64,000 bases of DNA from a phage. The notes beneath the pieces are model-generated. The model was not told the origin of the DNA and did not search any database. It worked only from the letters and a program-made list of their open reading frames with translations. Positions 55,868 through 63,017 of the stretch are shown piece by piece. The first letter of the stretch is position 1. The number at the start of each line of letters is the position of its first letter. The position numbers were made by a program, and so were the translations under genes. The stretch lies in NCBI GenBank assembly GCA_027337125.1, contig GCA_027337125.1_3057.1. One strand, 5' to 3'.

Positions 55868-56147
55868 ATATAAATCCGACTTTGATGTTAATATTCACCG
55901 TGGTACATTTTGGGGAAATTACGTCGGTAAAGATGCTGGCAGCCGGGAGGCTGCCATTGAATTATTCAAAAAAGATTTTATACGTCGAATTAAATCCGGA
56001 GAAATAACTAAAGCACATTTAGAGCCTTTACGTGGAATGAGGCTAGGATGCACATGTAAACCGAAGCCGTGTCATGGTGATATAATAGCTCATATAGTTA
56101 ACCGATTGTTTAAAGACGATTTTCAAGTTGAGGACTTATGCAATTAA
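55821..56147 (+). CDS. Hypothetical protein (start uncertain; alternative GTG 55857) with CxC...C-H cluster
   Basis: ORF overlapping upstream gene; ends overlapping nrdA start. Confidence 0.45.
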
Positions 56148-58402
56148 TTAATGTTATCAAAAGTAGTGGTGTTTCTCAGAGCTTTGACCCGCAAAAAATT
56201 ATTAAAGTTTTATCTTGGGCAGCTGAAGGAACATCAGTCGATCCTTATGAATTATATGAAAATATTAAATCTTATCTCCGTGATGGAATGACAACTGATG
56301 ATATTCAGACTATTGTCATTAAGGCCGCTGCGAATTCTATTTCAGTCGAAGAGCCTGATTATCAATATGTAGCTGCACGCTGTTTAATGTTCGCTCTTCG
56401 TAAGCATGTTTATGGGCAGTATGAACCGCGTTCATTTATTGACCATATTTCTTATTGCGTAAATGAAGGGAAATATGACCCTGAATTATTGTCAAAATAT
56501 TCTGCAGAAGAAATTACATTTTTAGAATCAAAAATTAAGCATGAGCGGGATATGGAATTTACTTATTCCGGGGCAATGCAATTAAAAGAAAAATATCTAG
56601 TTAAAGATAAAAGCACTGGTCAAATTTATGAAACTCCGCAGTTTGCATTTATGACTATCGGAATGGCATTGCACCAAGATGAACCTGTTGATAGATTAAA
56701 ACATGTTATCCGTTTTTATGAAGCAGTATCTACTCGACAGATTTCACTGCCAACTCCTATTATGGCTGGTTGTCGTACTCCGACTCGACAGTTTAGTTCA
56801 TGTGTTGTTATTGAGGCAGGTGATTCATTGAAGTCTATCAATAAGGCTTCTGCTTCAATTGTTGAATATATCTCTAAACGCGCTGGAATTGGTATTAACG
56901 TTGGTATGATTCGTGCCGAAGGTTCTAAGATTGGTATGGGCGAAGTACGACATACTGGTGTTATTCCTTTTTGGAAACATTTTCAGACTGCTGTTAAATC
57001 GTGTTCACAGGGTGGAATTCGTGGCGGCGCTGCTACTGCTTATTATCCTATTTGGCATTTGGAAGTTGAAAATCTTCTCGTTTTGAAAAATAACAAAGGC
57101 GTAGAAGAAAACCGTATCCGTCATATGGATTATGGTGTTCAGCTGAATGATTTGATGATGGAACGTTTTGGAAAGAACGATTACATTACTTTGTTCAGTC
57201 CACATGAAATGGGTGGCGAGCTTTATTATTCTTATTTTAAAGACCAAGACCGTTTCCGTGAATTATACGAAGCTGCAGAAAAAGACCCTAATATTCGTAA
57301 AAAGCGTATTAAAGCCCGTGAACTGTTTGAATTGCTCATGACTGAACGCTCAGGAACAGCAAGGATTTATGTGCAGTTCATTGATAATACGAATAACTAT
57401 ACTCCATTTATTCGTGAAAAGGCACCTATTCGTCAGAGTAACTTGTGCTGTGAAATTGCTATTCCAACAAATGATGTGAATAGTCCTGATGCTGAAATTG
57501 GATTATGCACTTTATCTGCATTTGTATTGGATAACTTCGATTGGCAAGACCAAGATAAAATTAATGAATTGGCAGAAGTTCAAGTTCGTGCTCTTGATAA
57601 TCTGTTGGATTACCAAGGATATCCAGTTCCTGAAGCAGAAAAAGCTAAAAAGCGTCGTAATCTTGGCGTAGGTGTTACTAACTATGCAGCTTGGCTGGCA
57701 AGTAACTTTGCTTCTTATGAAGATGCTAACGATTTAACACATGAACTATTTGAGAGATTACAGTATGGACTCATTAAAGCATCCATTAAGCTCGCCAAAG
57801 AAAAAGGACCTTGCGAATATTATTCAGACACTCGTTGGTCTCGAGGCGAATTACCTATCGACTGGTACAATAAAAAGATTGACCAAATCGCAGCTCCAAA
57901 ATACGTTTGTGATTGGTCGTCGCTGCGGGAAGACCTTAAGCTCTTTGGCATCCGTAATAGCACATTATCAGCACTTATGCCATGTGAGTCATCTTCCCAA
58001 GTTTCTAACAGTACAAACGGTATCGAGCCTCCACGTGGACCAGTCTCTGTTAAAGAATCAAAAGAGGGTTCCTTTAATCAAGTCGTGCCCAATATTGAAC
58101 ATAACATAGACCTCTATGATTATACATGGAAATTAGCTAAGAAAGGTAATAAACCGTATCTTACGCAGGTAGCTATTATGCTGAAATGGGTGTGTCAATC
58201 AGCTTCAGCGAATACATATTATGACCCCCAAATCTTCCCTAAAGGAAAGGTTCCAATGTCAATAATGATTGATGACATGCTATACGGATGGTATTATGGC
58301 ATTAAAAATTTCTATTATCATAATACCCGTGATGGTTCTGGTACTGATGATTATGAAATAGAAACTCCTAAAGCCGACGATTGTGCAGCGTGTAAATTGT
58401 AA
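56138..58402 (+). CDS. nrdA: Aerobic ribonucleotide reductase large subunit NrdA
   Basis: 754 aa; ATP-cone and class I RNR catalytic motifs; matches T4 NrdA. Confidence 0.95.
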   Translation: MQLINVIKSSGVSQSFDPQKIIKVLSWAAEGTSVDPYELYENIKSYLRDGMTTDDIQTIVIKAAANSISVEEPDYQYVAARCLMFALRKHVYGQYEPRSFIDHISYCVNEGKYDPELLSKYSAEEITFLESKIKHERDMEFTYSGAMQLKEKYLVKDKSTGQIYETPQFAFMTIGMALHQDEPVDRLKHVIRFYEAVSTRQISLPTPIMAGCRTPTRQFSSCVVIEAGDSLKSINKASASIVEYISKRAGIGINVGMIRAEGSKIGMGEVRHTGVIPFWKHFQTAVKSCSQGGIRGGAATAYYPIWHLEVENLLVLKNNKGVEENRIRHMDYGVQLNDLMMERFGKNDYITLFSPHEMGGELYYSYFKDQDRFRELYEAAEKDPNIRKKRIKARELFELLMTERSGTARIYVQFIDNTNNYTPFIREKAPIRQSNLCCEIAIPTNDVNSPDAEIGLCTLSAFVLDNFDWQDQDKINELAEVQVRALDNLLDYQGYPVPEAEKAKKRRNLGVGVTNYAAWLASNFASYEDANDLTHELFERLQYGLIKASIKLAKEKGPCEYYSDTRWSRGELPIDWYNKKIDQIAAPKYVCDWSSLREDLKLFGIRNSTLSALMPCESSSQVSNSTNGIEPPRGPVSVKESKEGSFNQVVPNIEHNIDLYDYTWKLAKKGNKPYLTQVAIMLKWVCQSASANTYYDPQIFPKGKVPMSIMIDDMLYGWYYGIKNFYYHNTRDGSGTDDYEIETPKADDCAACKL

Positions 58403-59133
58403 TGAATTATCAAAAAATCTATAATGACCTAATTTCCCGAGCTCAGGCTCGGGAACCTTTATCTGAATATAAAGAGACACATCATATAGTCCCTAAATGC
58501 ATGGGAGGTTCTGATGATAAAGAAAATTTAGTTGAATTAACGGCTAGAGAACATTTTATAGCGCATCTATTACTATGTAAGATAAATGAAGGCCATTTTG
58601 GGCTTGCCTCTGCGTTAACGTTAATGGCAACAGATAAAGCTGGTAATAGAATTAATAACAGATTGTATAGCTTGCACAGAAAATTATTTGCTAAAGCTAA
58701 TTCTGATTTCTTTAAGAAATATTGGAAAAATAATCCTCATCCTAGAGGAATGTTAGGCAAGCATCATAAAAACGAAACTAAACAACATGTATCAAACGTG
58801 AATAGGTATGCATGCCCATCTATCGAAATACATAAATTCTCATTAGATGGGGATTTCATAGAAACCTTTCACTCTATTGCGGCAGCGTCCAGGTCAGTTA
58901 ATGGAAACGGGTCAAATATCAAATATTGTGCTGAGGGTAAATTTCAATATGCCTATGGATTTAGATGGTCATATCAACTTGATACAAAGTTTGATAAAAT
59001 ACAACCAAGAGATTATAAAGGAATCCGCGGTAAGAAATGGATTAATAACGGAAGTGAATGCACGCTTATAGGTAAAGATGATATTATACCGCCAGGTTGG
59101 AAACGCGGCAGAATTTTAAAGAGGAAAAATTAA
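58402..59133 (+). CDS. mobE: Free-standing HNH homing endonuclease MobE between nrdA and nrdB
   Basis: 243 aa; HNH motif ETHHIVPKCMGGSDDKENLVELTAREH; ATGA/TAATG coupling to both neighbours. Confidence 0.8.
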   Translation: MNYQKIYNDLISRAQAREPLSEYKETHHIVPKCMGGSDDKENLVELTAREHFIAHLLLCKINEGHFGLASALTLMATDKAGNRINNRLYSLHRKLFAKANSDFFKKYWKNNPHPRGMLGKHHKNETKQHVSNVNRYACPSIEIHKFSLDGDFIETFHSIAAASRSVNGNGSNIKYCAEGKFQYAYGFRWSYQLDTKFDKIQPRDYKGIRGKKWINNGSECTLIGKDDIIPPGWKRGRILKRKN

Positions 59134-59894: not shown

Positions 59895-59926
59895 TGCTTG
59901 CACCTTTAATTAGTATAATATAAATA
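59895..59926 (+). promoter_or_regulatory. Stacked candidate middle (MotA box TGCTTGCA + TATAAT) and late (TATAAATA 59919-59926) promoters inside nrdB intron upstream of I-TevIII
   Basis: Exact late octamer; TGCTT box 19 nt upstream of TATAAT. Confidence 0.5.
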
Positions 59927-59953: not shown

Positions 59954-60763
59954 TTGAACTATAGAAAAATTTGGATAGATGCCAACGGACCTATACCTAA
60001 AGATTCTGATGGAAGAACATACGAAATCCATCATAAAGACGGTAACCGTGAAAATAATGATTTAGATAATTTGATGTGTCTTTCTATACAGGAACATTAT
60101 GATATACATTTAGCTCAAAAAGACTACCAGGCTTGTCATGCTATAAAGCTCAGAATGAAATATTCTCCTGAAGAAATTTCTGAATTAGCTTCTAAAGCCG
60201 CAAAATCTAGAGAAATCCAGGTTTTTAATATCCCTGAAGTACGAGCTAAAAATATTGCCTCTATTAAATCTAAGATAGAAAATGGTACATTTCATCTTTT
60301 AGGTGGTGAAATACAACGTAAATCTAATTTAAATAGAGTTGCATTAGGTATACATAATTTTCAACAAGCTGAGCATGTTGCAAAAGTTAAAGAACGCAAT
60401 ATTGCAGCTATAAAAGAAGGTACTCATGTATTTTGCGGTGGTAAAATGCAGTCAGAAACTCAATCAAAACGGGTAAATGACGGTTCACATCATTTCTTAT
60501 CAGAAGACCATAAGAAAAGAACATCAGCAAAAACATTAGAAATGGTTAAGAACGGGACTCATCCTGCACAAAAAGAAATCACATGTGATTTCTGTGGTCA
60601 TATTGGTAAAGGTCCTGGATTTTATCTAAAACATAATGACAGATGCAAATTAAATCCAAATAGAATTCAATTGAATTGCCCGTATTGTGAAAAGAAAGAT
60701 TTATCACCATCGACGTATAAAAGATGGCACGGCGACAATTGCAAAGCAAGGTTCAACGACTAG
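59954..60763 (+). CDS. I-TevIII: HNH homing endonuclease I-TevIII (full-length, 269 aa; TTG start inferred)
   Basis: HNH motif EIHHKDGNRENNDLDNL...H; C-terminal zinc finger CDFCGH...CPYCEK; AGAGGA RBS 7 nt upstream of TTG. Confidence 0.8.
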   Translation: MNYRKIWIDANGPIPKDSDGRTYEIHHKDGNRENNDLDNLMCLSIQEHYDIHLAQKDYQACHAIKLRMKYSPEEISELASKAAKSREIQVFNIPEVRAKNIASIKSKIENGTFHLLGGEIQRKSNLNRVALGIHNFQQAEHVAKVKERNIAAIKEGTHVFCGGKMQSETQSKRVNDGSHHFLSEDHKKRTSAKTLEMVKNGTHPAQKEITCDFCGHIGKGPGFYLKHNDRCKLNPNRIQLNCPYCEKKDLSPSTYKRWHGDNCKARFND

Positions 60764-60899: not shown

Positions 60900-61402
60900 G
60901 TACCTTTAACTTCCATAAGAACATGGAAATCATGGAAGGTAATGCCAAGATTATGAAGTTCATTGCACGTGATGAGCAGCTTCACCTTAAAGGCACTCAA
61001 TATATTATTCGTCAGCTTCAATCCGGTACTGATGGTGATGAATGGGTTAAAATTGCTCAAGAGTGTGAACAAGAAGCAGTTGATATTTTCATGGAAGTTA
61101 ACCGTCAAGAAAAAGACTGGGCAGTTCATTTATTTAAAGATGGCGATGTTCCTGGATTAAATACAAATAGCATGTGGAGCTTTATTGATTACTTAACTGT
61201 ATCTCGTATGAAACAGTGTGGTCTTCCATGCCCAATTACCGATGCTCCGGTTAAACACCCATATCCTTGGATTCGTGAATATCTTAATTCTGATAATGTT
61301 CAATCCGCGCCACAAGAAGTAGAACTGTCATCTTACCTTGTTGCACAGATTGATAATGATGTTGATGATAAAGTTATGATGAGTTTTAAAAAATACTTTT
61401 AA
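60900..61402 (+). CDS. nrdB: Ribonucleotide reductase small subunit NrdB, exon 2
   Basis: (C)TFNFHKNMEIMEGNAKIMKFIARDEQLHL... continues R2; joined product about 392 aa. Confidence 0.9.
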
Positions 61403-61429
61403 GGAGTGGGCCGCAAGGCCCATTTTATT

Positions 61430-63017
<1,588 letters not shown>

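Follow-up and report, generated by a model that had tools for sequence, protein, structure and literature searches.

A conserved hairpin between the Shine-Dalgarno sequence and the start codon of denA probably forms a split ribosome-binding site in T4-type phages

In two genes of bacteriophage T4, a folded structure brings a distant Shine-Dalgarno (SD) sequence into range of its start codon. In gene 38, the structure lies between the SD and the AUG and cuts their spacing from 22 to 5 nt; in gene 25, a stem-loop cuts it from 27 to 11 nt. In both cases, destabilising mutations lower translation (PMC3014915). The work on gene 25 (Nivinskas et al. 1999; Malys & Nivinskas 2009, as reviewed in PMC3014915) includes the phylogenetic conservation of the stem among its evidence, and the structure was reported only in close T-even phages. 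The initial annotation of the locus studied here had pointed out that structure-bridged initiation regions are known for a few T4 genes, and genes 38 and 25 are indeed established cases (PMC3014915). A related arrangement is the "split ribosome binding site" of Escherichia coli thrS (Sacerdot et al., discussed in PMC3936740), where a folded hairpin is accommodated by the ribosome and not unfolded. We describe here the junction between nrdB and denA, which would be a third natural example in this very small class, in which a folded hairpin between SD and start is accommodated by the ribosome. Our literature search found no description of the denA initiation region (a prior mention is possible in the older T4 literature, which lay outside the search).

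The window, i.e., the whole stretch of 64,000 nt that was analysed, comes from a T4-type myovirus (Tequatrovirus); over positions 61250-61600, its identity is 99.7% with RB32/RB33 and 98.9% with T4 and T6. Upstream of the junction lie nrdA (56138-58402) and, directly 3' of it, a mobE-like HNH gene (58402-59133, 243 aa). The latter is longer than the annotated mobE of T4 (426 nt), which is followed in that phage by a separate nrdB.1. The mobE-like gene carries a 9-bp stem with a 4-nt loop at 58434-58455, 32 nt past its ATG, which is where a weak internal terminator was mapped in T4 mobE (PMC2790892). The nrdB intron encodes a full-length HNH protein (59954-60763, 269 aa, Pfam HNH_3, I-TevIII-like), whereas its T4 counterpart is truncated and annotated as defective; this ORF is preceded at 59895 by a motif resembling a middle promoter and at 59919 by a late-promoter motif, TATAAATA. 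Exon 2 of nrdB (ORF 60923-61402, plus strand) ends in ...SFKKYF, and its UAA stop codon (61400-61402, plus strand) shares two bases with the SD of the next gene, denA (61430-61840, plus strand), which encodes the GIY-YIG endonuclease II from an ATG start (136 aa, Pfam GIY-YIG). A gap of 52 nt separates denA from rnlA and contains a MotA-box-like middle promoter (TGCTTCC, 13 nt, TACTAT; 61841-61866, plus strand), which was identified by pattern scan and serves rnlA. The same type of scan gave no promoter-like site between the end of the intron ORF (60763) and the denA start (61430), the next site being the one at 61841. Since rnlA has its own promoter there and is thus transcribed independently, denA is the last gene of the nrdB transcription unit; since denA has none of its own, it must be transcribed through the hairpin, and any termination at this point must be partial or leaky.

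The junction RNA reads ...UUU UAA GGAG U GGGCC GCAA GGCCC A UUUUAUU AUG AAA... The SD of denA, AAGGAG (61401-61406, plus strand), directly precedes a 16-nt hairpin of 6 bp (61407-61422, plus strand; 5' arm 61407-61412, 3' arm 61417-61422), made of a core stem GGGCC/GGCCC (61408-61412 and 61417-61421), a closing pair U61407-A61422 and a GNRA loop, GCAA (61413-61416). The U-rich spacer UUUUAUU (61423-61429, plus strand), a potential weak terminator U-tract, then leads to the AUG. The hairpin GGGCC-GCAA-GGCCC, which the initial annotation had placed at 61407-61422 between SD and ATG, is present in the sequence as described. The same annotation had put the SD 24 nt from the ATG and judged this too far for direct function; the judgement stands, but 24 is the difference between coordinates, and 23 nt actually intervene, beyond the range of about 15 nt for direct use. 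It was also correct that folding brings the SD to about 7 nt from the AUG, since the folded 16-nt hairpin leaves only 61423-61429 between them.

The hairpin has a calculated energy of -10.0 kcal/mol (5 bp) or -11.6 kcal/mol (6 bp), and its pair probability is 0.99-1.0 when folded in a 231-nt context. The duplex of the SD with the 3' end of the 16S rRNA is calculated at -8.0 to -8.7 kcal/mol, or roughly -8 to -9 kcal/mol, compared with a cost of about 4.5 kcal/mol for opening the SD in the T4 type. This cost accompanies a minimum-energy fold in which the T4-type stem is lengthened by weak G-U and A-U pairs between GGAG and UUUU (probabilities 0.14-0.96), an extension that would partly mask the SD and cut the spacer to about 4 nt. 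It occurs in the T4 type only and was not found in other genera. In the ensemble predicted for naked T4-type RNA, both the SD and the AUG have a low unpaired probability. The spacer UUUUAUU contains no conventionally spaced SD. Two loop bases and two stem bases at 61415-61418 spell another AAGG, 11 nt ahead of the AUG. The folded stem sequesters it, but it could act as an SD upon hairpin melting; it is missing in the relatives with a UUCG loop. An Rfam scan of 61200-61600 at permissive E-values gave no match near any gathering score.

These features suggest that the folded hairpin probably bridges the SD and the AUG and enhances the translation of denA. The gene would be read from transcripts running through nrdB, on which its sole SD overlaps the nrdB stop codon and, at 23 nt from the AUG, would be out of range for positioning the 30S subunit. 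With the tetraloop hairpin looped out, the 7-nt U-rich spacer that is left would allow an SD-bound 30S to have the AUG in its P site, by a mechanism analogous to the one experimentally shown for T4 genes 38 and 25. Given the usual ribosome footprint and helicase position, a ribosome with the UAA in its A site would span roughly 61397 to about 61412, including the whole 5' arm, and the hairpin would thus form only after termination on nrdB. Its formation after ribosome release would tie denA initiation to the end of nrdB translation. In the T4 type, a closely following ribosome may in addition suppress transcription termination, and the hairpin with its UUUUAUU tail is probably also a weak, leaky intrinsic terminator (with partial termination) and/or a barrier to 3' exonucleases for the nrdB mRNA. 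The unit of stop/SD, tetraloop and AUG would offer a compact natural part for the study or engineering of the coupled expression of a toxic nuclease.

The closest likeness is to gene 38. Its junction with gene 37 in T4, UAAGGAG-AGGGGC-UUCG-GCCCUU-CUAAAU-AUG, gives the published 22 nt when counted in the same way, compared with 23 nt for denA. Both sites have an upstream UAA that overlaps AAGGAG, a 6-bp GC stem, a stable tetraloop and a spacer of 6-7 nt before the AUG, and the denA junction of Karamvirus, UAAGGAG-AGGGCC-UUCG-GGCCCU-UCUGUU-AUG, is close to that of gene 38 in sequence too. The two genes differ in timing (gene 38 is late, denA pre-replicative) and in their tails, which are not U-rich in gene 38 and resemble that of a terminator in T4-type denA. 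The effect at gene 38 is also backed by mutations (PMC3014915), whereas that at denA is a prediction from sequence. Gene 25 resembles denA in that a stem-loop brings a distant SD into range, but its stem is AU-rich and weaker (-6.4 compared with -11.6 kcal/mol), it has several candidate SDs, and its structure is reported only from close T-evens (PMC3014915), whereas that of denA spans about ten genera and reaches phages of Klebsiella, Serratia, Erwinia and Proteus. In thrS, the ribosome likewise contacts single-stranded segments flanking a hairpin; there, however, the hairpin parts a standby/binding segment from an SD-AUG unit, not the SD from the AUG, and belongs to a protein-operated operator (PMC3936740).

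To assess conservation, we drew DenA homologues from GenBank phages and IMG/VR and obtained 25 distinct nrdB-denA junctions that represent about ten genera of Tevenvirinae. The sample comprises Tequatro-, Mosig-, Dhaka-, Gelderland-, Winkler-, Gapriver-, Karam- and Marfavirus as well as Klebsiella, Serratia and Proteus phages, and its hosts are Escherichia, Salmonella, Klebsiella, Enterobacter, Cronobacter, Serratia, Erwinia and Proteus. The hairpin is present in 24 of the 25 junctions, always in the order stop/SD, GC-rich stem, tetraloop, stem, short spacer and AUG (one of the 24 has a five-base loop), with a linear spacing of 21-27 nt that folding reduces to 6-13 nt. In all 24, the UAA stop overlaps or adjoins an SD-like motif, and an AAGG, AAAGG or AAGAG directly precedes the stem, while no such motif follows it; in eight of them (AAGGU, AAGGC, AAGAG), this motif is weaker than -4 kcal/mol. 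The ATG start of denA is kept in all relatives.

The stem itself varies (GGGCC/GGCCC, GGGAC/GUCCC, GGAGAC/GUCUCC, GGGGC/GCCCC, AGGGCC/GGCCCU) while its pairing is retained. Across 20 distinct loop-centred junctions, double changes affect four of the six stem pairs and 95.8% of the cells are paired. None of 500 shuffles reached the observed covariation, and displacing the 3' partner in a slid-register control left only 19-67% pairing. The loops of the 24 hairpins are UUCG (19), GNRA (three, GCAA or GUAA), UUUG (one) and a pentaloop (one). Among four aligned Tequatrovirus sequences, the sole changes over 100 nt are in a synonymous nrdB codon and from GCAA to GUAA, the latter falling at the degenerate N of GNRA. 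Because the loops are tetraloops of the sense strand (cUUCGg, GNRA), selection appears to act on RNA, and the comparative data indicate that the hairpin is selected as such and is more than a chance occurrence. A function as a DNA-level palindrome was considered and rejected, given these sense-strand UUCG/GNRA loops and a minus strand with neither a gene nor a T-tract. The denA site would be the most widely conserved of the three, and its natural compensatory variants could be used as a mutational series.

The exception is a junction from IMG/VR (L040; IMGVR_UViG_2974786931_000001, 640-720), where SD, hairpin and spacer are all missing and the denA start codon shares bases with the nrdB stop (cuuAUGA). 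This overlap shows that the two genes are transcribed together and that denA can be translated by coupling alone, which tempers any claim that the hairpin is indispensable. Ranked on DenA identity with the query, its nearest neighbour in our sample is L038, whose hairpin has an unusual 5-nt loop, GGGAG-CUUGA-CUCCC. Phage mar005P1 (H138), a different phage from L040, has a normal junction. In distant phages where denA does not follow nrdB, we found a hairpin followed by a normal SD (Krischvirus) or a stop/start overlap (Tulanevirus). As a separate observation, the SD of the window holds a GGAG (61403-61406), the core motif of the T4 RegB endoribonuclease, where most relatives have GGA(A/U/C). 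RegB cleavage at the SD was considered and rejected, as the 3' context is the hairpin and not the A-rich consensus GGAGRAYARAA; this context, and the lack of GGAG in most relatives, place RegB outside the conserved mechanism.

The argument depends on where denA starts, and the records disagree. The T4 GenBank record AF158101.6 (137517-137951) gives denA as 435 nt and 144 aa from a GTG, equivalent to 61406-61408 of the window, and gene tables on T4 coordinates likewise start at this GTG; most other records annotate 411 nt from the ATG. The crystallised protein likewise uses the ATG, since the chain in PDB 2WSH is MHHHHHH followed by MKEIATEY..., and the denA product differs from it at two positions over the aligned 139 residues. 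If the GTG were the start, which had been left open in the initial annotation as an outcome fatal to its model, the protein would have 144 aa and the hairpin would lie inside the coding sequence. The GTG is in frame with the ATG with no stop between them, and Dhakavirus WG01 is also annotated from an upstream in-frame ATG. Yet only five of the 25 distinct junctions, those of the T4 type, of Dhakavirus and of one Serratia phage, have an in-frame start within the gap. The frame of the gap shifts among junctions, with an in-frame stop from -9 to -63 and unrelated extension peptides, so that the gap does not evolve as coding sequence, and the compensatory variation of the stem at the RNA level also speaks against a coding role. 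Moreover, AAGGA adjoins the GTG, leaving no spacer for an SD, and two of its bases (U61407 and G61408) are within the stem at a pair probability of about 1. We thus consider a start at the GTG highly improbable: it is not conserved, its frame varies, it has no SD spacer and it is partly paired, all of which identify the ATG at 61430, 24 nt downstream, as the start of a 136-aa protein on comparative grounds. This evidence would settle the discrepancy with the T4 reference genome in favour of the ATG.

To place the site within the T4 genome, we took the ATG/GTG codons at the head of an ORF of 30 aa or more, 2,614 over both strands of the complete genome, and screened them. A match required an SD of -5.5 kcal/mol or better, a stem of 5 bp or more that follows the end of the SD by at most 3 nt and itself ends 3-12 nt before the start, a tail without SD, and a linear spacing of at least 15 nt. 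These rules, which both gene 25 and denA satisfy, gave four matches: gene 38, gene 25, the denA ATG and one ORF of 45 aa antisense to gene 39 (L053; AF158101.6 4358, plus strand; AAUGGAGA, a 7-bp hairpin and AUG), which is probably a false positive. The counts are those of a unified rule set; two earlier sets missed denA, probably because one took the AAGG within the hairpin for a conventional SD, while in the other the choice of hairpin boundary may have truncated the SD, and a set restricted to Watson-Crick pairs missed gene 38. The nrdB-denA junction is thus, as judged from comparison with its relatives and with genes 38 and 25, most likely a third and deeply conserved member of the T4 class of split ribosome-binding sites. 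This kind of site was already known, and what stands out is the conservation across many genera, the near identity to the layout of gene 38 and the annotation correction. Gene finders and terminator predictors will tend to mishandle such a site, calling a terminator without a ribosome-binding site or choosing the wrong start.

The main alternative to bridging is that the hairpin serves only as the intrinsic terminator and/or 3'-end stabiliser of nrdB, its folded geometry being irrelevant. The denA gene would then be translated from read-through RNA by termination-reinitiation coupling or from an A/U-rich leader, and the AAGGAG by the stop codon would be incidental or would merely help to retain the 30S subunit. 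A 6-bp GC stem followed by UUUUAUU has the look of a terminator and is annotated as one in several GenBank records, and the first eight spacer nucleotides include at least five U in 18 of the 24 junctions, as would also be expected under selection for termination, a point that counts to that extent against bridging. In T4, a comparable hairpin inside mobE stops only 30-50% of transcripts (PMC2790892). Like that of denA, it has a short stem rich in GC, a loop of 4 nt and a short tail rich in U, and it is placed between or at the start of co-transcribed genes; its stem has 9 bp instead of 6, and the U-tract of denA is not conserved among relatives. That even this longer hairpin stops no more than such a share limits the terminator reading. 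A run of at least four U occurs in only nine of the 24 junctions, and L045 and L046 keep the hairpin with the tails GUAAAGCU and AUAAAGCU, which have two U in eight nucleotides and no run of at least four. The ATGA overlap of L040, with neither SD nor hairpin, and the abundance of intercistronic cUUCGg hairpins in the window are compatible with a terminator. The latter, however, have the SD 3' of the stem when they adjoin a start, whereas at denA the SD-like motif is 5' of the stem in all 24 junctions. The site is also missing from our consensus terminator scan, for which our guess is that a G-T extension of the stem consumed the T-run. Termination must moreover be leaky for a gene with no promoter of its own, and T4-infected cells contain both denA RNA and EndoII protein (transcriptome/proteome supplement, temporal classes). 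Finally, the twin junction of T4 gene 38 has a non-U tail and is a documented split initiation region (PMC3014915). We therefore regard a role in termination or stabilisation alone as unlikely. The suggestion in the initial annotation that the hairpin could terminate or stabilise nrdB transcripts fares better as a second role: partial termination or protection of the nrdB 3' end is plausible in T4-type phages, given the tail and the annotated terminators, although it would be inefficient in view of the missing denA promoter and, with the U-run in nine of 24 junctions, not the conserved defining function. Our search found no T4 Term-seq or ribosome-profiling data, and no 3'-RACE data covering the site.

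Two further readings concern regulation. The layout could be a brake that keeps a potentially toxic EndoII low, in which case loss of the hairpin would not reduce, and might raise, denA translation. The predicted extended stem masks part of the SD, consistent with the low accessibility of SD and AUG in naked RNA; structured initiation regions commonly keep the expression of T4 homing-endonuclease genes low (PMC3014915); and the temporal class of the denA protein is late compared with that of its RNA (transcriptome/proteome supplement). Yet only the T4 type has the SD-masking extension, and SD and AUG are both free when the conserved core stem alone is formed. A melted stem would leave a 23-nt spacing unable to position the 30S, and in genes 38 and 25 it is the destabilising mutations that lower translation (PMC3014915), all of which makes a brake improbable. 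The other reading is a ribosome-operated switch that combines attenuation and translational coupling within 30 nt, which we regard as quite unlikely. The nrdB stop is 5 nt from the stem, and a ribosome on or near it would keep the 5' arm single-stranded. When this ribosome is close behind RNA polymerase, no terminator hairpin would form and transcription would read through into denA; when translation lags, the hairpin would form and transcripts would end after nrdB. On read-through RNA, release of the ribosome would let the hairpin close and the AUG reach the SD-held 30S. If true, synthesis of the host-DNA-degrading nuclease would be gated by the efficiency of nrdB translation at the levels of both transcription and translation, and the stop/SD-tetraloop-AUG unit, found also at the gene 37-38 junction, would be a reusable cassette. 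Bridging by the folded hairpin, which we favour, has to accommodate the weakness of the SD-like motif in a third of the lineages. Also against it, ribosomes of E. coli are reportedly able, to go by the title of one study (PMC7043885), to find the right start in the absence of SD pairing.

The position of the SD relative to the hairpin distinguishes denA from its surroundings. The other intercistronic tetraloop hairpins and weak intrinsic terminators compared here, such as that of mobE, precede the next SD or lie within coding sequence, and not between an SD and its AUG. Four start-adjacent tetraloop hairpins occur in the window, and that of denA alone has an SD 5' of the stem and none in the tail; the other three follow the order hairpin, SD, AUG. 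One of these three, at the junction between gene 37 and a gene 38 of the T2 type (38464-38428, minus strand), reads UAAUAA-GAGGGGC-UUCG-GCCCCUU-GGAGG-UUUAU-AUG. The glycine-rich ORF of 257/261 aa is identified as T2-type gp38 by position and composition only. This junction has a cUUCGg hairpin like that of the split gene 38 of T4, but in the conventional order of hairpin, GGAGG and AUG. The comparison between T4 and T2-type gene 38 thus suggests that one intercistronic hairpin serves in different T-even phages with the SD placed 5' of it in some and 3' of it in others.
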